Shown in pieces: positions 60 to 64,000 of a DNA stretch of 64,000 nucleotides. The notes below the pieces were generated by a model. The model saw only the letters and a program-made list of their open reading frames with translations. It searched no databases and was not told the DNA's origin. The stretch's first letter is position 1. Each line of letters starts with the position of its first letter. Source of the stretch: Candidatus Omnitrophota bacterium (GTDB lineage: Bacteria > Omnitrophota > Gorgyraeia > JABMRN01 > RBG-13-46-9); contig JADHYM010000001.1 of the NCBI GenBank assembly GCA_016782445.1, positions 10,212 through 74,211 of the forward strand. The letters run 5' to 3'. The translations under genes and the position numbers were made by a program.

Positions 60-130
60 TAAGTCATATTTTTGTCATTTGGCTTTTGGATTTTATTTGT
101 CATTTGGATTTTGTCATTTGTCATTTTCCT
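60..130. repeat. GTCATTTG-rich repeat element, copy A
   Basis: TTTTGTCATTTGGCTTTTGGATTTTATTTGTCATTTGGATTTTGTCATTTGTCATTTT; related copies at 12742-12795 (inverted) and 12838-12890. Confidence 0.7.
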
Positions 131-867
131 CGTACCTGGCAATACTGCGAATGCATGTACGTGGGAACAAGTTTGTCCGGATTTTCGAATTTTTTTCTGT
201 GAGCTTTACGAAGCCCAAGCTCCGCTACAACTTCCACTTTCGGATGCCAGTCTTTTTTTGAAATACGCGCAAAAGGGTTTTTCAGAATTTCACGCTCATA
301 GACAGCTATTCCATCGCCAAAAAGAAGGGTCGGCTCGCTAACGTGTTCAAGCAGGCTCTCTATACCGCACAGCATATACTCGCCCGTCCTGGCAAGATAA
401 CCGCCTTCCGAATGCCCTTGATTTCGTTGGGCATTCGTCCCGAGCTTGTCGAGGGACGAACCACCAATGCTTATAAGGCGGTTTACATAAAAAGCAGAAT
501 AGACTTTTTGTTTTTTCGCGTCTATTACCGGGCATAGGACATGCTCCTTTGAGTCGGTAAAGTTATGCGCTATTGCGTCAAGCGTAGAAATAGCCACTAT
601 TTTTGTGCCTAAAGCCATGCTGATGGCCTTCACAGAGGCAACGCCTATGCGCAGGCCCGTAAAAGAACCGGGCCCTATGCTTAACGCTATTGCATCTATA
701 TCTTTAAGCCTGATACGCGCTTTCTTCAAAACCTCATCAATGACCGGTATAAGCTGCTCCGAGTGGTTAGCTTTTCCGTCGTCTGTGTGTGACGCCAAAA
801 TCTTATGTTCTTTTGCCGCGGCAACCCTTAAAAACCGGGTTGATGTGTCTATCGCCAATATGTACAT
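121..867 (-). CDS. tsaB: tRNA threonylcarbamoyladenosine biosynthesis protein TsaB (YeaZ family)
   Basis: N-terminus MYILAIDTSTRFLRVAA...SIGPGSFTGLRIGV is typical of TsaB/YeaZ and the gene follows tsaE. The C-terminal about 30 aa are encoded by the GTCATTTG repeat element, so the native stop may have been altered. Confidence 0.8.
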   Translation of the reverse strand: MYILAIDTSTRFLRVAAAKEHKILASHTDDGKANHSEQLIPVIDEVLKKARIRLKDIDAIALSIGPGSFTGLRIGVASVKAISMALGTKIVAISTLDAIAHNFTDSKEHVLCPVIDAKKQKVYSAFYVNRLISIGGSSLDKLGTNAQRNQGHSEGGYLARTGEYMLCGIESLLEHVSEPTLLFGDGIAVYEREILKNPFARISKKDWHPKVEVVAELGLRKAHRKKFENPDKLVPTYMHSQYCQVRGK

Positions 868-876
868 GAATAAGTT

Positions 877-1332
877 TTAAGTTTTACGTTTTGGTTTTGC
901 ATTTTGACTTTTGCGTTTTGCATTAACGATTATTTCTCGTTTATTATCGCCTTTGTGTTTAAATTCTACGGCGATATGCTCCTCAGGTAAAATCTCCGCG
1001 GCGCGGTCGGCCCATTCCACAACGCTTATCCCTTTGGAATAAAAATATTCCTCGCAGCCGACTGTTTCAACATCTCTTGGTTTTTTCATGCGATAGAGAT
1101 CAAAATGATAAAGAGGAATTTTCCCCTTGTATTCCTGCAATATGACAAAAGAAGCGCTGTTAACATGGATATAATCTTTTATCCCCAGGGCTTTCGCTAT
1201 GCCTTTCGTAAAAACGGTTTTTCCCGTTCCGAGCTCGCCCGTAAGCGCCACGACAGAGCCCTTTTCGAGCGTCTTGCCGAATTCAAATCCGAGTTCAAAT
1301 GTCTCAGAGGCCTTCTTCGTTATGTATCGCAT
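877..1332 (-). CDS. tsaE: tRNA threonylcarbamoyladenosine biosynthesis ATPase TsaE (YjeE)
   Basis: P-loop LTGELGTGKTVFTKG and the YjeE-like motif PLYHFDLYR; about 150 aa; adjacent to tsaB. Confidence 0.85.
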   Translation of the reverse strand: MRYITKKASETFELGFEFGKTLEKGSVVALTGELGTGKTVFTKGIAKALGIKDYIHVNSASFVILQEYKGKIPLYHFDLYRMKKPRDVETVGCEEYFYSKGISVVEWADRAAEILPEEHIAVEFKHKGDNKREIIVNAKRKSQNAKPKRKT

Positions 1333-1399: not shown

Positions 1400-2269
1400 C
1401 TAAAAGTGCCGAAATCCCTCGGACTTAAGTGTTTTTTCTTTGCCGCTTTCTTCGATTATCTTCACCCCGTATTTTTTCGCGACGATCTCTCCTATAAGCG
1501 TAATCGGAAGATCCTCACCCATGCGCTTTATTATTTTACGGGATTCCTTTATAGAAGCTGTAAAAAGAAGTTCAAAATCCTCGCCTGCCTCAATAGCTTT
1601 ATCAAGGGGATCGGAATGCTCTGATAACGGAATAAGGCTTTCACAAACACGCGCGCCCGTGCCGCTCGAATCCGCGATCCTGTTTAAATCCATGGCGAGG
1701 CCGTCCGATAGATCTATCATGGAATTTACCTTGAAACGCTTCGTTAAAAATCTCGCCTCATGAAGCCGGGGAATGAACGTAAGATGCTTTCTTTTTCCCT
1801 CACCGAGGGCGCCTGTCACAAATATAAGATCACCCGTTCTCGCTCCGGAACGCCGAAGAAGGAGTCTCTTCTCGACCTCTCCCATAAGGGCCACGTTTAC
1901 TACTGTCTTAGCCGAGGCATTCGTATCTCCGCCTATTATTGTTATGCGAAACTTCCGAGCCGCGGCCTCTACGCCTTTTGCGATATCCAGTAAATACCGC
2001 ATGGGCTTTTTTCTCGGGATCCCCACCGAGATAAGCGCGTGTTTCGGAACGCCTCCCATAGACGCTATGTCGCTTATATTTACGGCCATCGCTTTCCATC
2101 CTATTTGGTAAGGCAAAGCGTTCTTCATAAAATGCACGCCCTCTACGATCATGTCAGTCGTCGCGAGAAGATATTTGTCTTTTTTATAATTCAACACAGC
2201 GCAGTCATCACCGATACCTTTAAACAGTGGACGTTTCGAAATATATTTAATAAATTTAAGTTCTTTCAT
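1400..2269 (-). CDS. thiL: thiamine-monophosphate kinase
   Basis: AIR synthase-related fold with GDDCAVL...ATTDMIVEGVHF...GGDTN motifs. The stop codon is TAG. Confidence 0.85.
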   Translation of the reverse strand: MKELKFIKYISKRPLFKGIGDDCAVLNYKKDKYLLATTDMIVEGVHFMKNALPYQIGWKAMAVNISDIASMGGVPKHALISVGIPRKKPMRYLLDIAKGVEAAARKFRITIIGGDTNASAKTVVNVALMGEVEKRLLLRRSGARTGDLIFVTGALGEGKRKHLTFIPRLHEARFLTKRFKVNSMIDLSDGLAMDLNRIADSSGTGARVCESLIPLSEHSDPLDKAIEAGEDFELLFTASIKESRKIIKRMGEDLPITLIGEIVAKKYGVKIIEESGKEKTLKSEGFRHF

Positions 2270-3294
2270 CGGGCATGTGCTCTTTTTATGCTCTTCCCAT
2301 ACGGCTTCCTTAATATCCCCTTTTCCGTAATGATCGCCGTTATGAATTTTGCCGGCGTCACGTCGAATGCCGGGTTGAAAACTTTTACATTTTTTGGCGC
2401 TATGAACTCTTTTCCTATTTTGCGCACCTCGTCCGGGTGGCGCTCTTCTATCGGTATGAAAGAGCCGTCTTTTATCTTCACGTCGATGGTAGAAAGGGGA
2501 GCTGCCACGTAAAAAGGTATCTTGTGATAATGCGCTGAAAGAGCTACCGAGTATGTTCCGATTTTGTTTGCCGTGTCACCGTTTCTGGCGATCCTGTCGG
2601 CTCCTACTATGATTTTATCTATTTTTCCGCGCGCCATCAAGCTTGCCGCCATGTTATCCGATATGAGTGTCGTGTCAATATCCTCATTTCTTAGCTCCCA
2701 GGCAGTGAGCCGCGCGCCCTGTAAGAGGGGACGCGTTTCATCCGCATATACTTTTATTTTTTTGCCCGAAGAGTGAGCCATGAAAATAACGCCGAGCGCC
2801 GTGCCGTAATCAGCTGTGGCAAGCCCACCGGCATTACAGTGCGTAAGTATCGTATCGCCCTTTTTAATAAGGGCATTTCCGAACCTCGCCATTTTTCGGC
2901 AGATATGCTTGTCTTCTTCTAATATTTTTTTGGCTTCCTCGAGCAAAATATGCTTTATGCGGGATACAGGCTCATACCTCTCTCGATATGCCGTTTCCCT
3001 CATCCTCTCAAGCGCCCAGAAAAGATTTCTCGCGGTAGGACGGGAGGTAGCAATGTATTTGATGGTTTTATCAAGGTCTTTAAAAAATGCCCTTTGGGAA
3101 TTCTTGACACCCAAATATACCCCGAATGCCGCCGCAATTCCAAGAGCAGGCGCGCCCCTTATCTTCATGGTACGAATAGCCTTCCACATCTCCCGCGGCG
3201 TAGTACAACTCACAAACTTTACTTTGTGCGGGAGAAGCGTTTGGTCTATTATCCGGACCTTATTTTTCTGCCATTTTATCGTTTCTACAGGCAT
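2266..3294 (-). CDS. mtnA: methylthioribose-1-phosphate isomerase (eIF-2B alpha/beta/delta family)
   Basis: MtnA/e2b2 signatures RGAPALGIAAAFG and VGADRIARNGDTANKIGTY. Confidence 0.75.
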   Translation of the reverse strand: MPVETIKWQKNKVRIIDQTLLPHKVKFVSCTTPREMWKAIRTMKIRGAPALGIAAAFGVYLGVKNSQRAFFKDLDKTIKYIATSRPTARNLFWALERMRETAYRERYEPVSRIKHILLEEAKKILEEDKHICRKMARFGNALIKKGDTILTHCNAGGLATADYGTALGVIFMAHSSGKKIKVYADETRPLLQGARLTAWELRNEDIDTTLISDNMAASLMARGKIDKIIVGADRIARNGDTANKIGTYSVALSAHYHKIPFYVAAPLSTIDVKIKDGSFIPIEERHPDEVRKIGKEFIAPKNVKVFNPAFDVTPAKFITAIITEKGILRKPYGKSIKRAHAR

Positions 3295-42838: not shown

Positions 42839-45340
42839 TTAGGAGAGTACTATATTGACGAGTTTATCCGGAACGACGATCCACTTCTTTATGTCCCGGC
42901 CGGCCAGGTGGCTTTTGATTTTTTCGTCTGCTAGGATTTTTTCTTTCAGTTCTTCGGCGACGAGGCCCCTGGGTATCTCCATCTTCGAGCGGAGCTTGCC
43001 GTTTATCTGGACGGGAAGCGTTATGTTTTCCGCGAGAACGAGCTTCGCGTCGTATGAGGGCCATTCTTTTTTTAGTATACTTTCTTTCCCGCCAAGCTTT
43101 TCCCACAACTCCTCGCATATGTGCGGCACAAGAGGAGAAAGCAATACGATGACAGTTTTAACCGCCTGTTCGATGGTTTCGCGCGAAGAGGATTTTTTAT
43201 CCTCTGCAAGGTATACCTCGTTCACAAGCTCCATTATCGCGCTTATCGATGTATTGAAATGAAATCCTTTTTCGATATCGTCTGTCACTTTCTTTATAGT
43301 CTGGTGGGTCTTCCGTTTAAGCTTTTCGTCGTTCACCGTTCCTCGTTCCTCGTCTGTCGTCTGTCGTCTGTCGTCTGTCGTCTGTTTCGCCATCCTCCAA
43401 ACCCTCCCGAGAAACCTGTACGCTCCCTCGACCCCCCTGTCAGACCATTCAGCGTCCTTCTCCGGAGGCCCTATGAAAAGCGTATAGAGCCTTATGGTAT
43501 CTGCCCCGAACTTTTTTATAAGCTCATCCGGGCTCACTGTATTTCCTTTTGATTTTGACATCTTGGCGCCATTTTTTATTATCATTCCCTGGGTAAAAAG
43601 ATTTTTGAACGGCTCGTCAAAACCTATAAGTCCCATCTCATTTAAGACCTTCACTATGAACCGCGAATATAATAGATGCAGTATCGCGTGCTCAACGCCT
43701 CCTATATACTGGTCAACCGGAAGCCACCTGTCAACATCCTCTTTTTCGAACGGCTTATTTTCAAGCTTTGCGGATATGTAACGCAAAAAATACCAGCTAG
43801 AATCAACGAACGTGTCCATGGTGTCGATTTCGCGGCGTGCCTCTGCCTTGCACTTTGGACACTTAGTATCTACAAATTTCTTCGAGGTTTTTAAAGGGCT
43901 CTCGCCTTTTCCGCCCAAGGCGGACCTGCCTAGGGCAGGAGCGCCAAATTTCACGTCTTCCGGCAGAATTACAGGCAAATCTTTTTCCGGCACGGCTACT
44001 ATGCCGCATTTCTCGCAATATACCACCGGTATGGGCGCACCCCAGTATCTCTGCCGGGATATGAGCCAGTCCCTAAGTTTGTACTCGGTGGCCTTTTTGC
44101 CGATTTTTTTCTCCTCCATCCAGTCTGTTATTTTTCCAATCGCCTCTCTGTTTTCAAGCCCGTCAAACTGCGCCGAGTTCACCATTATCCCGTCATCTTC
44201 GTACGCTTTCCCCGGTTCTTCTGACCTCTGACCTCTGACTTCTGACTTCTGAATCACTGTCTCTATAGGTAGCTTGTACTTAGCCGCGAATTCGTAGTCT
44301 CTCTGATCGTGAGCCGGAACAGCCATGACAGCGCCTGTCCCGTACTCCATGAGAACGTAATTCGCCACCCAGAGGGGAATTTTTCTTTTCGTTACCGGGT
44401 TAATAGCGTACCGGCCGGTGAATATTCCAACCTTTTCTGCGTCGGCCTGTACACGCATTATTTTGGATTCCGTGCGCATTTTTTCGACGGCTACCATGAT
44501 TTTTGATTTTTCTTTTACGCCATCCAGGAGCTCTTCGAGATGCGGGTGCTCCGGCGCTATGACCATGTACGTGGCGCCGAAAATAGTGTCCACTCGAGTC
44601 GTAAAACAGGCTAATGTTTCCTCAGAACCCACAACCGGAAAATAAATTCTCACGCCCTCAGAGCGGCCTATCCAGTTAGCCTGCATTATCTTGACCCTTT
44701 CGGGCCAGTTCTCGAGCGACTTCAAGTCGCCTAAGAGGCGCTCTGCGTAATCAGTTATTCTAAAAAACCACTGTTCGAGGTCTTTTTGCGAAACAGCTGT
44801 CTCGCACCGTTCGCATTTTCCCTCTATTACCTGCTCGTTGGCGAGCACAGTATTGCAGGAAGAACACCAGTTGACAAACGCCTTTTTCCGGTAAGCAAGG
44901 CCCTTTTCAAGGAGTTTAAGAAATATCCACTGCGTCCATTTGTAATAATCAGCCAGGCATGAGGCAACCTCGCACGACCAGTCATAGCACACGCCCCAGC
45001 TCTTAAGCTGTTCTTTCATCCGTTTTATGTTAGCCAGAGTATATTTTTTAGGGTGGGTTTTATTTTTTATGGCAGCGTTCTCAGCCGGGAGCCCGAAAGC
45101 GTCCCAGCCCATGGGCGTAAGGACATTAAACCCGCGCATTTTCTTGTAGCGCGCGACGACATCACCTATTATGTAATTGCGGCCGTGCCCGACGTGAAGC
45201 GCTGCCGACGGGTAAGGGAACATGACCAGGCAGTAGAACTTTTTCTCAAAGTCCTTTATATCGGCCTTAAAAAGCTTTTTTTTAGACCAATATTCCTGCC
45301 ACTTCGGCTCAATCTTATCGAACGGGTATGATTTTTCCAT
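42839..45340 (-). CDS. leuS: leucyl-tRNA synthetase
   Basis: HIGH (HVGHGRNY) and KMSKS (KMSKSKGN) motifs plus a CP1 editing domain; 833 aa. Carries two heptamer-repeat-encoded low-complexity insertions. Confidence 0.95.
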   Translation of the reverse strand: MEKSYPFDKIEPKWQEYWSKKKLFKADIKDFEKKFYCLVMFPYPSAALHVGHGRNYIIGDVVARYKKMRGFNVLTPMGWDAFGLPAENAAIKNKTHPKKYTLANIKRMKEQLKSWGVCYDWSCEVASCLADYYKWTQWIFLKLLEKGLAYRKKAFVNWCSSCNTVLANEQVIEGKCERCETAVSQKDLEQWFFRITDYAERLLGDLKSLENWPERVKIMQANWIGRSEGVRIYFPVVGSEETLACFTTRVDTIFGATYMVIAPEHPHLEELLDGVKEKSKIMVAVEKMRTESKIMRVQADAEKVGIFTGRYAINPVTKRKIPLWVANYVLMEYGTGAVMAVPAHDQRDYEFAAKYKLPIETVIQKSEVRGQRSEEPGKAYEDDGIMVNSAQFDGLENREAIGKITDWMEEKKIGKKATEYKLRDWLISRQRYWGAPIPVVYCEKCGIVAVPEKDLPVILPEDVKFGAPALGRSALGGKGESPLKTSKKFVDTKCPKCKAEARREIDTMDTFVDSSWYFLRYISAKLENKPFEKEDVDRWLPVDQYIGGVEHAILHLLYSRFIVKVLNEMGLIGFDEPFKNLFTQGMIIKNGAKMSKSKGNTVSPDELIKKFGADTIRLYTLFIGPPEKDAEWSDRGVEGAYRFLGRVWRMAKQTTDDRRQTTDEERGTVNDEKLKRKTHQTIKKVTDDIEKGFHFNTSISAIMELVNEVYLAEDKKSSSRETIEQAVKTVIVLLSPLVPHICEELWEKLGGKESILKKEWPSYDAKLVLAENITLPVQINGKLRSKMEIPRGLVAEELKEKILADEKIKSHLAGRDIKKWIVVPDKLVNIVLS
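43338..43386. repeat. heptanucleotide tandem repeat (CGTTCCT x2, CGTCTGT x5) inside leuS
   Basis: Encodes ...QTTDDRRQTTDEERGT... in LeuS. A second heptamer array (CTGACYT x5) at 44220-44252 encodes ...SEVRGQRSEE.... Confidence 0.85.
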
Positions 45341-45613
45341 AAATGAGTCGTAAGGTCCTTCGTAATACGAATCGTTTCGTAAGGTCCTTCCGCAATGGCA
45401 AACGCTCCCTTGGGTCGCGTTTTTTTCATTGCTTCAGGATCACTTTTGCTTCGCAAAAGTGAAGCCGGCGGGAATCGACTACTACGCCCCGCAGATGCGG
45501 GCCTGCGTAGTCTCCCCTCGCTCGCTTTCGGCCGGTCTTCGGCTTACGGCCTTTTCCTCCCTATGGTCGGCGCTCGCTCGCTTCGATTCCCGCCAAGGAG
45601 AACCTGTATCAAG

Positions 45614-45684
45614 TGGAGCCGGCGGGAATCGAACCCGCGATACCAGACTGCCAGTCTGGTGTGATCCCGCTTCACCACGGCCCC
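45614..45684 (-). tRNA. tRNA-Ala (anticodon GGC)
   Basis: The minus-strand sequence GGGGCCGTGGTGAAGCGGGATCACACCAGACTGGCAGTCTGGTATCGCGGGTTCGATTCCCGCCGGCTCCA folds as a cloverleaf with the G3:U70 Ala identity pair and a CUGGCAG anticodon loop. CCA is not encoded. Confidence 0.85.
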
Positions 45685-45773
45685 TTTTTCTATGTATAGA
45701 TTATATATTAATTTTAATCTGCATACAACCAATTTTGTAAAATTAGGAATTATAACATTCTGGCCTCAAAAAC

Positions 45774-45801
45774 TTGCACATTTAGCTTGAGATGATATAA
45801 T
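45774..45801 (+). promoter_or_regulatory. sigma-70-type promoter upstream of tRNA-Leu (TTGCAC-N16-TATAAT)
   Basis: TTGCAC at 45774-45779 and TATAAT at 45796-45801, about 27 nt upstream of the tRNA 5' end. Confidence 0.5.
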
Positions 45802-45828
45802 ATATTTATGTATATTTTGCCAGAGTGA

Positions 45829-45905
45829 TGGAATTGGCATACATGATGGTCTCAAAAACCATTGGTCGCAAGACCTTGTGGGTTCGAATCCCACCTCTGG
45901 CACCA
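45829..45905 (+). tRNA. tRNA-Leu (anticodon CAA), type II with long variable arm
   Basis: GCCAGAG acceptor stem, anticodon stem-loop ATGGT-CTCAAAA-ACCAT, variable arm GGTCGCAAGACC, T-arm GTGGGTTCGAATCCCAC, 3' CTCTGGC-A-CCA (CCA encoded). Confidence 0.85.
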
Positions 45906-45930
45906 TAACGAATTAATCAAATATGACAAA

Positions 45931-46599
45931 ATGGGGTTTTGGAATACAAATATAGCATATGCCGTTGGGCTCCTAACCACTGATGGTAATATCTCAAATG
46001 ATAAGAGGCACATCTGGTTAACCTCTACTGATAAACAGTTATTATATACCTTTCGGGATTGCCTTAAAATAAAAAACCGTATATGCATAAATCCGCCGGG
46101 AAGTTACTCTCGAAAAATATGTTATAGAATTTCCTTTTGTAACATAAAATTTTACAATTGGCTATTAAAAATAGGACTAAAACCAAATAAAACTTTTTCT
46201 TTGGCATCTTTGAAAATACCTAAGAAATATTTTTTTGACTTTTTGAGAGGGCATATCGATGGAGATGGTTCAGTAATATATTACGTTGATAAGCATAATA
46301 AATACAAAGGAAAAACTTACGTTTATGATAGGTTATGGATTACATTGCGTTCCGGCAGTCTAAAACACATAAAATGGATACGAAAATGTATAAGAAAAAA
46401 GCTGCATATGAAAGGCAGTTTAAGCGGGTGGAAAGATAAAAAAAATAAAGCAAAGAAAATGTTATGGTCTTTAAAATTCTATAGAAACGACTCATTGGTG
46501 CTTATTGATCATCTATACTATAGATCTAATTTACCATGCCTTTACCGAAAAAGAAAAATCGCAGAAAACTACATTAAGAAAATAGGCAAAATAAATTAG
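45931..46599 (+). CDS. free-standing LAGLIDADG family homing endonuclease (double-motif)
   Basis: Two LAGLIDADG-type motifs, GLLTTDGNIS and FLRGHIDGDGSV, spaced about 100 aa apart. Lys-rich, AT-rich coding sequence. Begins 26 nt after tRNA-Leu; the ORF-track start at 45862 overlaps the tRNA. Confidence 0.8.
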   Translation: MGFWNTNIAYAVGLLTTDGNISNDKRHIWLTSTDKQLLYTFRDCLKIKNRICINPPGSYSRKICYRISFCNIKFYNWLLKIGLKPNKTFSLASLKIPKKYFFDFLRGHIDGDGSVIYYVDKHNKYKGKTYVYDRLWITLRSGSLKHIKWIRKCIRKKLHMKGSLSGWKDKKNKAKKMLWSLKFYRNDSLVLIDHLYYRSNLPCLYRKRKIAENYIKKIGKIN

Positions 46600-46600
46600 C

Positions 46601-47695
46601 TTACTCGAAATGCCAGAAACCGGGATTGTCTGAAAAGGACCTCTGAAAAGCCCTGATAACACGCGGATCGAACTGCGTTCCGGAACTTCGTACTATCTCA
46701 AGGGCAGCCTCTTTGGCAGTATACGCTTTCTGGTACGGGCGGTTCGTGGTTAGCGTATCGAACGCGTCTACCACTGCTATTATCCTTCCTTCGAGGGAAA
46801 TCTTATTTCCGCTCATCTTTTTTGGATATCCGGTGCCATCGAAACGCTCGTGGTGCTCCAGCATGCCGTTTAATATATTTTTCGATTCCACTACCGCCTT
46901 TACTATGTTGTACCCTATGGCCGGGTGTTTACGCATTTTTTGAAGTTCGTCAGCATCGAGGGCGGACTTTTTTGAAAGAATGCTGTCGCTTATGCCTATC
47001 TTTCCTATATCATGGAGTATGGAAGCAAAGTTCAGATCCTCCAGGAATTGTTCAGGCTCCCGCATCTCGCGCGCTATCTCGAGGGCATATTTTGACACGC
47101 GCTCTGAATGGCCGTGCGTGTAGGGATCCTTGGCGTCTACGGCGGCGGCAAGGCTTAAAATCGTATTTAAAAAAAGTGCTTTAGTGTTACCGTAAAGCCT
47201 GGCATTTAAAAGCGCGATTGCCACGTGATTTGCAAGCGCATAAAGAAGTTTTTTATCCGCCTCCGTAAAACGGGTTTTTCTGCTTTTATGGTCGCTTACG
47301 AGAAGTACCCCTATAATTTTTGAGCCGGTTTTAAGCGGGACGGCTATAAAAGAGCCTATGGGAATTTTTTCTTTTGAAAATGGTATTTTTTTTCGCTTGA
47401 AGCGCGCATCTTTTGCTATGTCATTTACAAGAAGCGCCTTGCCCTTCCTGGCAAGCTCCACATTAATCCTCTCCCATCCGGCAAGCACCTTCAGGTTCGC
47501 CAGCTGATTATTCGTAAACCCCTTGGCACCTATGAGGATAAGGTGGTGCGCTTCTTTATCCAGCAAGAAAAGCGCGCTGAAATCAGTATCGAGGAACTTT
47601 TTTGCTTCTTTTAAAATAATATTGCTTACTGTTACAAGCTCGAGGCTTGAGCTTACCTTACGGCTTACCTTTAAAAGCGTTTCAAGAACAGTCAT
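46601..47695 (-). CDS. GAF domain / HD-GYP domain phosphodiesterase
   Basis: N-terminal GAF domain; C-terminal HD domain with HDIGK and a GYP motif (FDGTGYP). Confidence 0.8.
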   Translation of the reverse strand: MTVLETLLKVSRKVSSSLELVTVSNIILKEAKKFLDTDFSALFLLDKEAHHLILIGAKGFTNNQLANLKVLAGWERINVELARKGKALLVNDIAKDARFKRKKIPFSKEKIPIGSFIAVPLKTGSKIIGVLLVSDHKSRKTRFTEADKKLLYALANHVAIALLNARLYGNTKALFLNTILSLAAAVDAKDPYTHGHSERVSKYALEIAREMREPEQFLEDLNFASILHDIGKIGISDSILSKKSALDADELQKMRKHPAIGYNIVKAVVESKNILNGMLEHHERFDGTGYPKKMSGNKISLEGRIIAVVDAFDTLTTNRPYQKAYTAKEAALEIVRSSGTQFDPRVIRAFQRSFSDNPGFWHFE

Positions 47696-47696
47696 G

Positions 47697-49631
47697 TCAT
47701 CCTATCCGCACCGCGATGACTGTTATGTCATCGTGCTGTGCTTTTTTTTCAAATTTTTTAACCGTATCTTGCACAAGATCTACCATCTTCTGCGGCGTGA
47801 GGCTCCTGTTCTTTGCCACAAGGTCCGCCAGGCGGGATGAACCGAACATCTCGGCCTTCGGGTTCATTGCCTCCGTAACGCCGTCAGTGTACATGACAAA
47901 CATGTCGCCTTTTCCGAACCGCGCCTCTTCGGCGCTGAACTCACCGTCAAAAAGTCCGAGCGGCGTTCCTTCTTTCGCGTCCAAGAGAATTGGCTCGGAT
48001 TTGTCTTTTTTCAGCATTATGATGGGCAAATGCCCGCCGCTTGCGTATAAGAGAAGGCTGTTTTTTTCGTCGAAAATAGCGTAGGTAAGCGTCACGAAGA
48101 GCCCTGCCGAGCCCTCTTTGACAAGGCGCGAATTCAGCTTTGTAACTATCTCTTTCGGGTTCGAAAGACCCATGTACGTCCTGAACTCGCTTACTACCTT
48201 TGCCATGTATAGAGCGGCCGGCACGCCTTTTCCTGAAACATCCCCTATCATCACTCCGAGCTTTTCAGGGCTTATTTTAACGAGGTCATAAAGATCCCCG
48301 CCTACCTGCTTGGCCGTTTGCATGCTGGCCGCGACCTGTATGCTGTGGGTAGCGGGTATTTCCTGGGGCAGGAAGCTTTCCTGGATACGCTTTGCTATCG
48401 CCAGCTCCTTCTCGAGAAGTTCCCTCCCCCGCATTTCTCCCATATAGCGCGTGAACGTAATGCCAAGGTAAAGAAATACCATTACGACGAAGGGACAGAA
48501 TACATCTATCCATAACCCGAAGAAAATGAATAAGAGAACCGCCAGAAGAACATAAGCCGCTGTTAGCAAAAATACAAAAAGGAAACCGACAAGGGTCTTC
48601 GCTCTTTTTGATACAAAAAAGAGAAGGAGCGAAAGAAATACAAGTATTGCCGCGTTTGTAGAGCGGGTCGCCCGGGCTATGAACTTTCCTATAAGAAAAC
48701 TGTTAAAGAGGCTTGCGTTAACCCCTACCCCCGGATACATGGAATCAAAAGGCGAGGGATGCACGTCCGGAGCCGCGGTTGCCGTTACGCCGATAAAGCA
48801 GACGCTATCTTGCAAAGATGTAAGATCCAGGATCGCTTCTTTACCGGTAACCTCCGGAAATTTGTCCGACATATAAGACTCTATAATATCTATGTAGGAG
48901 TAATGCCTGAAAGTATCCTGCCATCTTCCGGGAAAGTTAACGATAATGTTTGAATCTGAATCCAGCGGAATCTTTTGATCCTCGCCCATCTTGACATAAC
49001 GGCCGGGCGTGATCTTGATATCGTCTTGCTTTTTGCCCATGTAATTAGCCGCCACAAGAAAGCATACGTGGGGATAACCAATATTTTGATACCTGATAAT
49101 GGGAGGAACCCTTCTGAATTTTCCGTCAACGTCAGGAATTATATTTATGAATCCCGCACCCTTTGCAAAGCTTTCGAACCTGTCAAGAATTGCCTCCTGT
49201 AACTTATCAGCTACGGGAACGTCTTTTCGGCCTTCTTCTTTTATGTTGAAAATATAAGGAAGATATACTATCCCTGATTTTTTGATCGCCTCCTCGAAAA
49301 GCCTGTCCGCGGTCGGGTCGCTATCCTCGCTGAAAAAAATATCAAAAACGATTGCCTGCGCGCCGGCTTCCGTGAGCGCCTCAACGAGGGTTGCGTGGTA
49401 GCGGCGGGAAAAAGGCCACTTGCCGATTTTGTCTATGGTGTCATCGGCTATCTCTATTATGACTATGTTCTTTTTAACCTGGAGCGTGGGGCGCAGCCTG
49501 AACCTTATGTCGAGGGTTTCGAGTTCATAGCTGTCCAGAAAGCGCGAGTATGAAAGGGCTATTATCGCGATAAAAACGGCCAGGAGCCCGGCGTATAAGG
49601 CTATCTTCTTTTTAACCCTGGTAACATTCAT
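47697..49631 (-). CDS. CHASE2 sensor domain / PP2C (SpoIIE-like) serine phosphatase
   Basis: N-terminal TM helix and CHASE2 domain, further TM helices, and a C-terminal PP2C/SpoIIE domain with metal-binding aspartates (GGDLYD, GDVSGKG, DGVTEA). Confidence 0.75.
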   Translation of the reverse strand: MNVTRVKKKIALYAGLLAVFIAIIALSYSRFLDSYELETLDIRFRLRPTLQVKKNIVIIEIADDTIDKIGKWPFSRRYHATLVEALTEAGAQAIVFDIFFSEDSDPTADRLFEEAIKKSGIVYLPYIFNIKEEGRKDVPVADKLQEAILDRFESFAKGAGFINIIPDVDGKFRRVPPIIRYQNIGYPHVCFLVAANYMGKKQDDIKITPGRYVKMGEDQKIPLDSDSNIIVNFPGRWQDTFRHYSYIDIIESYMSDKFPEVTGKEAILDLTSLQDSVCFIGVTATAAPDVHPSPFDSMYPGVGVNASLFNSFLIGKFIARATRSTNAAILVFLSLLLFFVSKRAKTLVGFLFVFLLTAAYVLLAVLLFIFFGLWIDVFCPFVVMVFLYLGITFTRYMGEMRGRELLEKELAIAKRIQESFLPQEIPATHSIQVAASMQTAKQVGGDLYDLVKISPEKLGVMIGDVSGKGVPAALYMAKVVSEFRTYMGLSNPKEIVTKLNSRLVKEGSAGLFVTLTYAIFDEKNSLLLYASGGHLPIIMLKKDKSEPILLDAKEGTPLGLFDGEFSAEEARFGKGDMFVMYTDGVTEAMNPKAEMFGSSRLADLVAKNRSLTPQKMVDLVQDTVKKFEKKAQHDDITVIAVRIG

Positions 49632-61652: not shown

Positions 61653-64000
61653 TTAGCCGCACTTGGAATATCCGCAGGAGCGACACACCATGCATCCTTC
61701 TACATGCCAGAGCGCCCCTCCGCAATCAGGGCATACGCCTACTATGTTGCCTGTTTTCTTTTTAGTGGCTACGGCAGTCGAGCCCGTGGACACAGGGGGG
61801 CTTGAGGTGTTCTCTTTTTCAGGAAGAGGCTTTTCTTCTTTACGGGTTTTACCGAGGAGCCTTTGCTCCACGACACGCGCTATCGCGTCGGAACATGAAA
61901 AAATCCTCCCGCCTTTTTCCCAGCTCGGAGACGGGCAACGTATTCCCCTTAGCTGCTCTATGACGGATTTTATCTCGATGCCACTTCGCAGGGCGAGCGA
62001 AAGTAACCTACCAATCGCCTCAAGCTGCGACATTGCGCAGCCGCCTGCTTTTCCCATCTGCATGAAAACCTCAAAAGGATGCTGTTCCTCATCCTCGTTT
62101 ATCGTGACGTAAAGGTTCCCGCATCCGGTGGCTATTTTTGTCGTAGTGCCGGATATGACAGAAGGCCGGGGCCGCGGAATTATTTTTTGCGAGTCTTTTC
62201 TCGGCTCTCCGTCTTTCGTCTTTTCTTTTTTCTCTATGTTCAGTACCTGCTCGGCCCTGGAGCCGTCCCTGTAGACGGTTACGCCCTTACATCCAAGTTC
62301 GTGCGCCAGCATATAAGTATTTTCGATATCCTCTTTTTTTGTGGAATTGGCGAAATTTATTGTCTTGGAAACAGCATTATCCGTATACTTTTGAAACGCT
62401 GCCTGTATTCTTATGTGCCACTCGGGAGTAATGTCATGCGAGGTAACAAAAAGTTTCCTTACGTCTTCCGGAACTTCCTTTAGCTCCTGGATGTTGCCTT
62501 TTTTAGCTATTTTTTTAAGAAGCTCTTCGCTCCAGAAGCCCCTGTCTTTCGCTATTTTCTCAAACTGTTCGTTGACCTCCGGCAGCTTATCCTTATCCAT
62601 TACTTCTTTATAATACATTATGGCAAAAAGCGGCTCGATGCCGCTTGAGCACCCGGCGATTATGCTTAAAGTTCCCGTGGGCGCTATGGTAGTCACTGTG
62701 GCGTTTCTGAACCTGGATCCGTTTCTCTCACTGTATATGCTCTTTTCAAAATTGGGAAAAACGCCGCGTGTCTCGGCGAGCTCAGATGAAACTTTTCTCG
62801 CCTCTTTCAGTATGAACGCCATCAGCTTATCCGCAGTTCTTACAGCCTCTTCCGAATTATAGGCTATGCCGAGGTCTATCAGCATATCCGCGAATCCCAT
62901 TACTCCCAGTCCGATCTTGCGGTTGGCCCTGGTAATTTTTTCGATCTCTGGGAGCGGAAACCGGTTCATGTCGATGACGTTATCCAGAAAATGGACCGCG
63001 CCCCTTGTCGCCCGTGCAAGCTTTTCCCAGTCGATTTTCCCGCCGGTAATCATTCTGGAAAGATTTATGCTGCCCAGATTACAACTTTCATATGGTAACA
63101 AAACTTGTTCACCGCATTGGTGAGTAACCATCCCGTTAACAACCATGGAATGCGTAAAGGGTTCGGTAAGATCAAAAACCGGCTTCACGCCGTTATATTT
63201 TATTGAGCGTATTTCGTCAAAAAACTTCTCTTCGTAGAATCGAGTAAATTTAATGTTATCTAATTTGCTTTTTTTGTCATTATTGATAAAATTGATTTTC
63301 TTTCTGAATCTCTCGCGGCTGGCTCCGAATATACACAGCTCATACAGTACGCCATCGCTCATATAACTTTTTAGCTTACCCGACTTATCAAGATATTTAA
63401 AAAGCCTCTTTCTTGCCTTGCGGCTTCTGTCATAGATACTGCTTTTAATACCCATGTTCAGCAATAAGAGCTGAACCCCTTGAAGCAATTTTTTACTTTT
63501 GGAGGTTAGCGCTACCCATTCGCTATTGGGTTTTGGATTGCTTCTAACAGTTCCGTCTGCCGAAAAAAGCGCCTGGAGAAATCCTGTAACCGCTTCTTCC
63601 GGAGCCGTAAACAAGGTTTCTGGCACTTCTTTGTCATTCGCACCTTTTATTTTAACGCCCAGTTTTTTGAAGAAATCCACAACCTGCCTACTGCCATACG
63701 CCAGATGAAAGACCTCTCTCTCCCGCATGATTCCTTCTACCTCGTATCCGCACATTCTGTTGAGAATCGGTTTTAAATAATCCAGTATTTCCCTGTCGTC
63801 TCTTCCGAAAGAAAAAGCCACGCACGCATGATTGTCATCCCTTATCCACCCGTCTCCGATAAGCCATCCTAAAATATGTCCCAGTTCTTTTGACCATTCG
63901 CATGGGAAATTAAATTTATAAACCCTTCCGTTTCTGCCTTTAATTTCATTGGAAACGCTAAAGGGTAATTCTTTATTTTTGTTAAATCTTCCACTCGCGC
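61653..64000 (-). CDS. nrdJ: class II (adenosylcobalamin-dependent) ribonucleotide reductase NrdJ, intein-containing; 5' end beyond window
   Basis: C-extein begins CGEQVLLPYESCNLGSINL (thiyl-radical active-site region) and ends with a Cys4 zinc ribbon. Upstream of the CGEQ lies an intein. Confidence 0.85.
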   Translation of the reverse strand, partial: ASGRFNKNKELPFSVSNEIKGRNGRVYKFNFPCEWSKELGHILGWLIGDGWIRDDNHACVAFSFGRDDREILDYLKPILNRMCGYEVEGIMREREVFHLAYGSRQVVDFFKKLGVKIKGANDKEVPETLFTAPEEAVTGFLQALFSADGTVRSNPKPNSEWVALTSKSKKLLQGVQLLLLNMGIKSSIYDRSRKARKRLFKYLDKSGKLKSYMSDGVLYELCIFGASRERFRKKINFINNDKKSKLDNIKFTRFYEEKFFDEIRSIKYNGVKPVFDLTEPFTHSMVVNGMVTHQCGEQVLLPYESCNLGSINLSRMITGGKIDWEKLARATRGAVHFLDNVIDMNRFPLPEIEKITRANRKIGLGVMGFADMLIDLGIAYNSEEAVRTADKLMAFILKEARKVSSELAETRGVFPNFEKSIYSERNGSRFRNATVTTIAPTGTLSIIAGCSSGIEPLFAIMYYKEVMDKDKLPEVNEQFEKIAKDRGFWSEELLKKIAKKGNIQELKEVPEDVRKLFVTSHDITPEWHIRIQAAFQKYTDNAVSKTINFANSTKKEDIENTYMLAHELGCKGVTVYRDGSRAEQVLNIEKKEKTKDGEPRKDSQKIIPRPRPSVISGTTTKIATGCGNLYVTINEDEEQHPFEVFMQMGKAGGCAMSQLEAIGRLLSLALRSGIEIKSVIEQLRGIRCPSPSWEKGGRIFSCSDAIARVVEQRLLGKTRKEEKPLPEKENTSSPPVSTGSTAVATKKKTGNIVGVCPDCGGALWHVEGCMVCRSCGYSKCG
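63117..64000 (-). mobile_element. intein with LAGLIDADG homing-endonuclease domain inserted in nrdJ (N-terminal junction outside window)
   Basis: Intein C-terminal blocks F/G read VFDLTEPFTHSMVVNGMVTHQ, followed directly by the extein +1 Cys. LAGLIDADG motifs are LGWLIGDGWI (translated from 63840-63870) and FLQALFSADGTV. Confidence 0.75.

Follow-up and report, generated by a model that had tools for sequence, protein, structure and literature searches.

Mobile open reading frame elements (mORFs) of fungal mitochondria create hybrid genes, as described for atp6 of Allomyces macrogynus and for atp6, atp9, cox2 and nad3 of Glomus, with a layout in which the core of the gene is followed by an inserted replacement copy of its 3′ part, a free-standing endonuclease open reading frame (ORF) and the displaced native 3′ part (PMC3630166). 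Here we analyze a 64,000-nt stretch of a Candidatus Omnitrophota genome (contig JADHYM010000001.1), hereafter the window, in which a gene for tRNA-Leu(CAA) is followed by a free-standing LAGLIDADG endonuclease gene; coordinates refer to the forward strand of the window, and loci elsewhere are coded with L-numbers. From comparison of sequences, we consider it rather probable that positions 45819-46599 form a free-standing element of homing type, with tRNA-Leu(CAA) as its target and with expression by way of the tRNA transcript. The family resembles mORFs in the order of gene, 3′ copy, endonuclease ORF and displaced 3′ part (seen in 9 of 59 loci, the window not being among them), in an ORF that can be in frame with the parts of the gene, and in inserted and native copies of differing lineage, which indicate horizontal transfer. 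Unlike mORFs, it resides in the bacterial chromosome and invades a tRNA gene instead of a protein gene, so that there is no synonymous-site freedom to immunize the restored gene. Its apparent expression through tRNA processing, the usual loss of the remnant and the strong purifying selection across phyla also set it apart from mORFs.

Free-standing phage endonucleases such as SegB spread by intronless homing and are co-inherited with flanking markers; SegB is a GIY-YIG enzyme of a phage, is not bound to one tRNA and does not duplicate a 3′ part. The SegB gene of T4 is named in a phage tRNA gene cluster (PMC13096335), and the present family likewise consists of free-standing endonuclease genes among or next to tRNA genes, but it is tied to one tRNA, duplicates the 3′ part and has no relatives on viral contigs. 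The endonucleases reported in tRNA introns of bacteria belong to the HNH, PD-(D/E)XK and LAGLIDADG PF03161 families (PMC13011429). As with the endonuclease genes of tRNA group I introns, it is tRNA genes that are invaded, in the anticodon-loop region and partly in the same phylum (Patescibacteria), whereas there is no ribozyme, the tRNA is restored by duplication and not by splicing, and the endonuclease family is another one. Insertions in rRNA genes of the candidate phyla radiation (CPR) carry mostly single-domain LAGLIDADG_1 enzymes, with a few LAGLIDADG_3 enzymes in 16S rRNA insertions, in a report whose main text does not contain the word 'tRNA' (PMC11270868); host radiation and superfamily are the same as here, but those enzymes are encoded inside rRNA genes.

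Among characterized enzymes, I-Tsp061I (2DCH) and I-DmoI are the best matches in sequence and fold and, like the window protein, are two-domain monomers of ~200-220 aa with an acidic residue ending each LAGLIDADG helix; they are archaeal and encoded inside rRNA introns, whereas the window protein is ~19% identical to them, free-standing, bacterial and tied to a tRNA. WhiA (DUF199) is a domesticated bacterial LAGLIDADG protein that has lost its catalytic residues and carries a C-terminal helix-turn-helix (HTH). One subfamily of the present proteins also joins LAGLIDADG and HTH modules but, unlike in WhiA, both catalytic Asp are invariant and the HTH, where present, is N-terminal. A full-text literature search, including PMC13011429 and PMC11270868, returned no account of a LAGLIDADG family linked to tRNA-Leu(CAA), and NCBIfam contains no model for it; the family is previously undescribed.

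The endonuclease and its tie to tRNA-Leu(CAA)

The proposed element is made up of the following features.

45819-45905, plus strand: tRNA-Leu(CAA), an uninterrupted type II gene of 87 nt that encodes its CCA and has a long variable arm (ARAGORN)
45906-45930, plus strand: A/T-rich spacer of 25 nt between the CCA end of the tRNA and the ATG
45931-46599, plus strand: free-standing LAGLIDADG endonuclease gene, monomeric and double-motif, 222 aa plus stop
45955-45996, plus strand: LAGLIDADG motif 1 (AYAVGLLTTDGNIS; GLLTTDG), with the codon of catalytic Asp18 at 45982-45984
46240-46275, plus strand: LAGLIDADG motif 2 (DFLRGHIDGDGSV; HIDGDG), with the codon of catalytic Asp112 at 46264-46266

Pfam matches LAGLIDADG_3 to residues 9-68 of the protein (E=4.5e-8), and the second half gives only sub-threshold matches to LAGLIDADG_1 and Endonuc_subdom. 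An AlphaFold2 model built on 42 homologues (predicted local distance difference test, pLDDT, 92.9; predicted template modelling score, pTM, 0.88) has the two-domain alpha-beta-beta-alpha-beta-beta-alpha fold, with the order of secondary-structure elements that is expected for LAGLIDADG. In this superfamily the two LAGLIDADG helices pack where the domains meet, and each leads into a beta-sheet saddle that binds DNA. A structure search with this model returned 119 matches in the Protein Data Bank (PDB) at E≤0.001, LAGLIDADG enzymes foremost; the best is the archaeal intron-encoded I-Tsp061I (2DCH, E=3.7e-12), followed by E-DreI (a chimera of I-DmoI and I-CreI), I-OnuI, bI3 maturase and WhiA (3HYI). 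D18 and D112, the acidic residues that end the two LAGLIDADG helices, are invariant in 42 homologues that are 43-79% identical to the window protein, as are R26, K87, D103, R106, G107, D110, G111, G113 and D120. The ORF is a free-standing double-motif LAGLIDADG enzyme with intact catalytic residues.

The same protein is encoded, without a difference, on five metagenome contigs, and a protein search yielded 215 homologues, free-standing and of ~220 aa, which belong to Omnitrophota or Patescibacteria where an organism is named. When 1.84 billion cluster representatives were searched with a profile, 356 clusters (50% identity) were found at E≤1e-30. With one genome counted per species, at least 557 species genomes of Omnitrophota, Patescibacteria and Methylomirabilota encode relatives. 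The PHROG endonuclease family phrog_4645 matches the family (E=9e-27). Membership in a defence system was considered and rejected, as PADLOC returns only its generic homing-endonuclease model, with no specific defence-system match, and NCBIfam has no matching family.

Linkage to tRNA genes was analyzed in the 80 best loci, with the following outcome.

tRNA-Leu(CAA) directly upstream, same strand: 74 of 80 loci
tRNA-Leu(CAA) upstream, same strand, but truncated where the contig ends: 2 of 80 loci (76 of 80 with the preceding line)
tRNA-Leu(CAA) directly 3′ of the ORF, Methylomirabilota: 2 of 80 loci
481-codon ORF between tRNA-Leu(CAA) and the LAGLIDADG ORF: 1 of 80 loci
no tRNA by the ORF: 1 of 80 loci

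The flanking genes vary, with leuS (the gene of leucyl-tRNA synthetase, LeuRS), an AP endonuclease gene and CHASE2/SpoIIE in Omnitrophota, topA in Nealsonbacteria, and POR/TPP enzyme genes in Methylomirabilota. Since the surrounding genes thus differ by lineage, tRNA-Leu(CAA) is the sole constant partner of the ORF, and the tRNA-Leu(CAA) of the window can be aligned with those that precede homologous ORFs in other genomes. The two Methylomirabilota loci with the tRNA 3′ of the ORF led to a second, longer subfamily (~290 aa), which carries an N-terminal HTH module; its N-terminal extension matches HNH endonuclease families of phages in their own N-terminal region. In all six loci of this subfamily that were examined, the gene order is the reverse: the ORF ends 6-21 nt 5′ of tRNA-Leu(CAA), and tRNA-Ala(GGC) comes next after this tRNA. 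The occurrence of the same tRNA in both gene orders argues for a specific tie to tRNA-Leu(CAA), and not for the use of any tRNA promoter.

In the single locus with an intervening ORF (L069, 1502-2944), the 481-codon ORF, to which no function is assigned, continues upstream in frame out of the tRNA region. The record titles of L055, L044, L061, L067, L069, L022, L038, L039, L068 and L070 in several cases say Methanosarcinales, Gammaproteobacteria or Planctomycetia, while tRNA, ORF and LeuRS group with CPR or Omnitrophota. Organism names in titles of the 'TPA_asm uncultured' type thus seem unreliable and were not used for taxonomic claims.

Partial tRNA copies, empty sites and transfer

The insertion signature of the family is a second, partial tRNA-Leu(CAA) that overlies the last codons of the ORF and the next 20-40 nt. 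It was scored as present at a local-alignment score ≥30, which 9 of 59 loci reached, and which was reached by none of the control windows of the same size placed elsewhere in the same loci (0/60, 0/63 and 0/56, or 0/179 in all). In L100, L032, L028 and L035 the similarity starts sharply at the anticodon loop, '(T)CTCAAAA', at tRNA position ~32, and in L100 and L032 the remnant extends to ...GGCACCA. The ORF reads through the remnant, with CTC AAA translated as Leu-Lys, and in several loci its stop is the TGA in 'GTGAGGGTTC'. In L100, a locus of the window's tRNA clade, the parts are placed as follows.

827-913: tRNA-Leu
931-1611: ORF
1582-1637: tRNA remnant, 56 nt

Remnants are often nearer to the tRNA-Leu(CAA) of other lineages than to the tRNA of their own locus.

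L048 remnant: 92% to the best other lineage, 72% to its own tRNA
L035 remnant: 89% to the best other lineage, 69% to its own tRNA
L041 remnant: 94% to the best other lineage, 74% to its own tRNA
L013 remnant: 94% to the best other lineage, 70% to its own tRNA

Because of this resemblance to the tRNAs of other lineages, remnant and full tRNA have different histories. No tRNA remnant was seen upstream of the ORF in the six loci of the HTH-fused subfamily.

Presence and absence of the ORF were compared in 14 metagenome loci that were fetched by tRNA sequence alone, with a pattern fitting the window's tRNA clade; 12 of them could be scored. The ORF is present in four of the 14 (L100, L101, L105 and L110, one of them cut by the contig end). 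Eight loci (L097, L098, L099, L102, L103, L104, L107 and L109; 8 of 14, i.e. 8 of the 12 scorable) are clean empty sites, in which even a profile search found no frameshifted or remnant ORF. Of the remaining two, L108 does not extend far enough to be scored, and L106 stops before the point at which an ORF would show. Filled and empty sites also occur in syntenic pairs. In L007 the order is tRNA, ORF and AP endonuclease gene, and in L107 the tRNA is followed after 40 nt by the AP endonuclease gene (79% nucleotide identity); in L017 the order is tRNA, ORF and CHASE2 gene, and in L098 the tRNA lies 1 nt from the CHASE2 stop. L106 was tried as an empty allele and rejected, as an IS481-family transposase gene follows the tRNA and the contig ends too early. 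This gene starts 3 nt past tRNA-Leu(CAA) (2080-3231 when oriented with the tRNA on the plus strand; 104-1255, minus strand, as stored), and the locus is otherwise close to the filled L110, with leuS 96.6% identical and the tRNA identical. The 3′ flank of tRNA-Leu thus attracts other mobile DNA too.

Transfer between hosts is indicated by disagreement between ORF and LeuRS. L070 and L068 have LeuRS sequences that are 0.70 identical but ORFs with an identity of just 0.43, and both the ORF of L070 (0.58-0.60) and its tRNA (0.81-0.86, compared with 0.63 to L068) match CPR loci instead; LeuRS gene, ORF and tRNA of L070 all lie on one 66-kb contig. By these identities the host of L070 is outside the CPR while its tRNA and ORF are of CPR type, and at least one unit of tRNA and ORF has crossed phyla. 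ORF identities are only 0.57-0.63 in another clade in which those of LeuRS are 0.74-0.81, and across clades the difference between ORF and LeuRS identity ranges from +0.12 to -0.27.

Taken as a homing-type element, the enzyme would cut tRNA-Leu(CAA) genes that are without the ORF, most likely in the anticodon arm. The arm is favoured as the site because the repeat begins there, because it holds the sole conserved sequence specific to Leu(CAA), and because it forms an inverted repeat of the kind favoured by LAGLIDADG enzymes. Repair from the filled allele would then copy in the ORF along with a replacement 3′ part of the tRNA (in L070, with an entire tRNA), and the old 3′ part would be left behind. 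The tRNA repeats would serve as homology arms that travel with the element and do not depend on the flanking genes, and recombination between them would excise the ORF, giving clean empty sites.

Expression and surroundings of the locus

Measured from the discriminator base of the tRNA, the start codon of the ORF lies at a median distance of 9 nt; the gap does not exceed 12 nt in 41 of 65 loci, and in seven it is exactly 3 nt (for example GGCA CAA ATG). The N-terminal 'MP...' is conserved among homologues, which indicates that the tRNA-abutting start codons are real, and between the discriminator base and a start codon so near to it neither a promoter nor a Shine-Dalgarno (SD) sequence would fit. 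In the window, the spacer at 45906-45930 contains neither a plus-strand terminator nor an evident SD sequence. In most genomes the ORF, apparently having no dedicated promoter or ribosome-binding site, would be transcribed from the tRNA promoter, and processing of the tRNA 3′ end would release a leaderless or near-leaderless ORF mRNA; for the HTH-fused subfamily, tRNA 5′ processing would set the 3′ end of the mRNA. The genes are separated in a few lineages, such as L024, where a terminator hairpin follows the tRNA and an SD-like GGGAGG precedes the ATG. Autoregulation by tRNA-Leu(CAA) through TTG codons was considered as well and rejected, since TTG is not enriched but rarer in the ORFs (12% of Leu codons) than in the flanks (19%), which is the wrong direction.

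Upstream and downstream, the element of the window is bordered by three further features.

45774-45816, plus strand: promoter-like region 5′ of tRNA-Leu, consensus match only
45613-45684, minus strand: tRNA-Ala(GGC) (ARAGORN), divergent from tRNA-Leu, outside the element
46601-47695, minus strand: convergent gene of GAF/HD-GYP type, 1 nt from the stop of the LAGLIDADG ORF

By eye, the promoter-like region contains TTGCAC at 45774-45779 as the -35 and TGaTATAAT at 45793-45801 as the extended -10, with a spacer of 16 nt, and a promoter scan placed an overlapping sigma-70-like TTGAGA-18-TATATT at 45787-45816. Transcription would start ~10 nt before the 5′ end of tRNA-Leu. An earlier note on this DNA, made from the letters alone, had credited the tRNA with a sigma-70-like promoter of its own; a site is present, but such sites are no more frequent near tRNA-Leu than in shuffled sequence (3 seen versus 3.7 expected), and this was the weakest part of the description. 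Other parts agree with what was measured. The AT-rich stretch that it drew at ~45690-46600 has a GC content of 0.265-0.385 in 200-nt windows across 45700-46699, compared with 0.59-0.605 just upstream (45400-45699) and 0.49-0.51 just downstream; the LAGLIDADG ORF has a GC of 0.31 (0.30 at third codon positions, GC3), and the remaining window 0.47. The tRNA-Leu(CAA) that it called an apparently intact type II tRNA is found as such by ARAGORN and, at 45819-45905, as a single continuous gene by the Rfam tRNA model (55.7 bits, E=1e-10). Its free-standing double-motif LAGLIDADG ORF of 222 aa is recovered by Pfam, by the AlphaFold2 model and by the fold match to 2DCH, and the ORF does end 1 nt before the stop of the convergent HD-GYP gene (46599 and 46601); the spacer, given as 26 nt, measures 25 nt after the CCA. 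The note had also placed a second LAGLIDADG domain in an intein of a ribonucleotide reductase gene. This gene (61656-63998, minus strand) runs off the end of the window and matches Ribonuc_red_lgC, TSCPD and LAGLIDADG_3 (E=1e-21), the last of which is most likely the endonuclease of an intein. An origin of the tRNA-linked ORF from this intein endonuclease was ruled out, as the two are 23% identical with E=0.38 and share no more than the superfamily.

In Omnitrophota, leuS lies 0.5-2 kb from tRNA-Leu(CAA) whether the ORF is present or absent (42839-45905 in the window; L005, L007, L011, L012, L017 and L109). tRNA-Ala(GGC) accompanies tRNA-Leu(CAA) in Omnitrophota and Methylomirabilota, with varying orientation and side; it is on the minus strand in the window but on the plus strand in L005, and in L012 it lies 3′ of the ORF. 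On the 3′ side of the window's tRNA-Ala, a GC-rich stretch (~0.6) at 45380-45612 on the minus strand is strongly structured, with an RNA minimum free energy of -101.6 kcal/mol (z=-4.97). Within it, 16-17 nt repeat the 3′ end of tRNA-Ala in direct orientation (tcgattcccgccggct; 45464-45480 versus 45617-45633); a 12-bp inverted repeat and then two hairpins are also present. The only Rfam match of this stretch is a sub-threshold one to permuted transfer-messenger RNA (tmRNA), and comparable GC-rich sequence lies 3′ of tRNA-Leu in the empty loci L102 and L108. Either a non-coding RNA or an insertion at the 3′ end of the tRNA, in the form of a small element or of a remnant attachment site (att), could account for the stretch.

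L002, another contig from the population of the window, is identical to the window over 4.9 kb and then differs at 33 positions, all of which lie at 47823-48075, inside the CHASE2/SpoIIE gene and in the last 250 nt of L002. The cluster of differences marks a boundary of strain-level recombination or of assembly. As all the differences fall in the CHASE2 gene, a within-population selection signal drawn from this pair was set aside as having no bearing on the ORF.

Weighing of the explanations and what they would mean

A number of observations weigh against a homing-type element in this locus. No tRNA remnant lies behind the ORF of the window (z=0.3), and remnants are detected in only ~15-20% of loci; in the lineage of the window the remnant appears to have been deleted, since the stop of the neighbouring gene lies 1 nt past that of the ORF. 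The 80 best loci contain no degenerate copies, such as a cycle of gain, decay and loss would leave, in a sample that is biased to intact ones. Within the window's clade, filled and empty tRNAs are interchangeable: those of L110 and L106 are the same, and the pairs L097/L101 and L099/L017 differ by 2 nt each, at no consistent position. An immune tRNA variant in filled alleles was sought in the D-arm, the anticodon stem, the variable arm, the T-stem and the first nucleotides after CCA, and was rejected, as none of these holds a discriminating position. There is also no conserved half-site 3′ of the tRNA, and nothing downstream separates filled from empty sites in the window's clade. In the light of this lack of difference, cleavage of the intact tRNA gene by the enzyme would be expected to strike the copy of its own host as well. 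With no relatives in 2.9 million viral contigs (IMG/VR), there is no vector either; a phage in this role was rejected on that ground and because LAGLIDADG proteins of GenBank phages are distant, at 26-32% identity only. Further, the closest ORF pairs have ratios of nonsynonymous to synonymous substitution (dN/dS) of 0.05-0.19, a host-like purifying selection, and ORF and LeuRS diverge in parallel in the window's clade, with ORF/LeuRS identities to the window of 70/67, 63/65, 65/66 and 62/65. A Mantel test of ORF against LeuRS within this clade, which is star-like, gave r=0.33 with p=0.06. The GC content of the ORF tracks that of the host (r=0.87) at ~8 points lower, and with such a constant deficit the AT-rich islet is a family-wide trait and not a sign of recent arrival. 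Selection and parallel divergence fit a long vertical residence, possibly with a host function, and in the lineage of the window the element looks long-resident and mostly vertical.

It is conceivable, though we lean away from it, that the enzyme has been domesticated, as a former homing endonuclease that is kept because it serves the tRNA-Leu(CAA) locus or the expression of this locus (as a site-specific nuclease or a DNA-binding factor in maintenance, regulation or defence), inherited vertically and lost where it is unneeded. Domestication retains this standing because no self-immunity is visible and purifying selection is strong. The low dN/dS, an ORF identity that follows LeuRS ~1:1 in the window's clade where neighbouring signalling genes diverge more, and an ORF GC ameliorated to the host all speak for it, but the ORF is found in only 4 of the 14 tRNA-sampled loci, with empty sites interspersed among filled relatives, and ORF and LeuRS are incongruent elsewhere, most clearly in L070. 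Pseudogenized copies are lacking among the sampled loci and tRNA linkage is preserved in two gene orders, as would suit a host gene; against this stand the foreign-type tRNA remnants behind the ORF and the strict retention of both catalytic Asp, unlike in the domesticated WhiA. The unit of the L024 type, separated by its own terminator and equipped with an SD-like sequence, also favours a host role, while the want of a specific PADLOC match counts against defence and the TTG usage speaks against a tRNA-Leu(CAA)-dependent autoregulatory loop. Of the traits of a conserved ordinary host gene, which the earlier note had set against a mobile element, purifying selection and a divergence about that of leuS are thus seen, but presence in all members of the clade is not, with the ORF absent from 8 of the 12 scorable loci.

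Two further explanations concern the origin of the repeat. One class of integrative elements yields direct repeats that start at the anticodon loop of a tRNA gene and extend as far as its 3′ end, and the repeats behind the ORF, which have this extent as tRNA att sites give it, might be the attL and attR of a tyrosine-integrase element at tRNA-Leu(CAA), with the LAGLIDADG gene as its last cargo. The 16-17-nt copy of the tRNA-Ala 3′ end, 150 nt downstream of the window's tRNA-Ala, would be in keeping with such an islet. We find it very improbable, however, as neither an integrase nor any further cargo is enclosed by the repeats in any of ~100 loci, the same minimal unit occurs in at least 557 species and there are no relatives on viral contigs; moreover the ORF starts 3-30 nt past the tRNA and ends inside the remnant, so that the ORF is the entire insert. 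Hardly any credence is given to the degenerated group I intron that the earlier note had offered, in which an ORF-bearing intron once sat in the anticodon loop of tRNA-Leu(CAA), lost its ribozyme, and had an intact tRNA restored upstream. The nearest solved relatives are indeed intron-encoded, and the remnant junction is at the anticodon loop, the canonical region of bacterial tRNA group I introns (PMC13011429), but at ~31/32 it falls where the loop starts or immediately 5′ of that point, whereas the insertion sites named in that paper run from 33/34 to 36/37, and the homing endonucleases of tRNA introns in Patescibacteria are of HNH type and not LAGLIDADG (PMC13011429). Rfam gave no intron model, of group I or group II, at E≤1 in 44800-47200, where it reports tRNAs and sub-threshold tmRNA-like matches on tRNA-Ala, or at gathering score in 17 related loci; the tRNA is uninterrupted, and no sequence remains between tRNA, ORF and remnant to hold ribozyme elements.

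The mobile cassette tied to tRNA-Leu(CAA) that the earlier note envisaged fits the partial tRNA copies, the filled and empty alleles and the one cross-phylum transfer, and the comparison of relatives that it suggested gives a patchy distribution with clean empty sites. Its view of free-standing bacterial LAGLIDADG enzymes as unusual needs qualifying in view of a family in at least 557 species, and tRNA-Ala, which it had included in the possible target, is a frequent neighbour only, in varying orientation. Returning to the homing-type element, we can further picture, with considerable doubt, a self-propagating tRNA-gene replacement cassette that would move full or partial tRNA-Leu(CAA) between phyla, obtain its mRNA from tRNA processing, and later be kept by the host as a functional nuclease. 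Such retention would explain both the slow, LeuRS-like evolution and the lack of pseudogenes in the sample, and within such a cassette the leaderless message produced by tRNA processing would be a bacterial counterpart of mitochondrial 'tRNA punctuation'.

If a homing-type element is the true explanation, it would represent a new bacterial route into an essential RNA gene, by way of a spare copy of the displaced part instead of a self-splicing intron or an intein; the spare-copy layout has so far been documented for protein genes in fungal mitochondria. For annotation, a start codon that abuts a tRNA in a CPR or Omnitrophota genome may be the sign of a leaderless mRNA that is set free when the tRNA is processed. 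The family would also supply a large set of compact, ~220-aa monomeric LAGLIDADG enzymes with a target that is probably defined and highly conserved, and hence useful meganuclease scaffolds. For the biology of these elements, it would offer a tractable case of homing endonuclease persistence over phylum-scale time under purifying selection, and it suggests that endonuclease drive can move tRNA genes between phyla.

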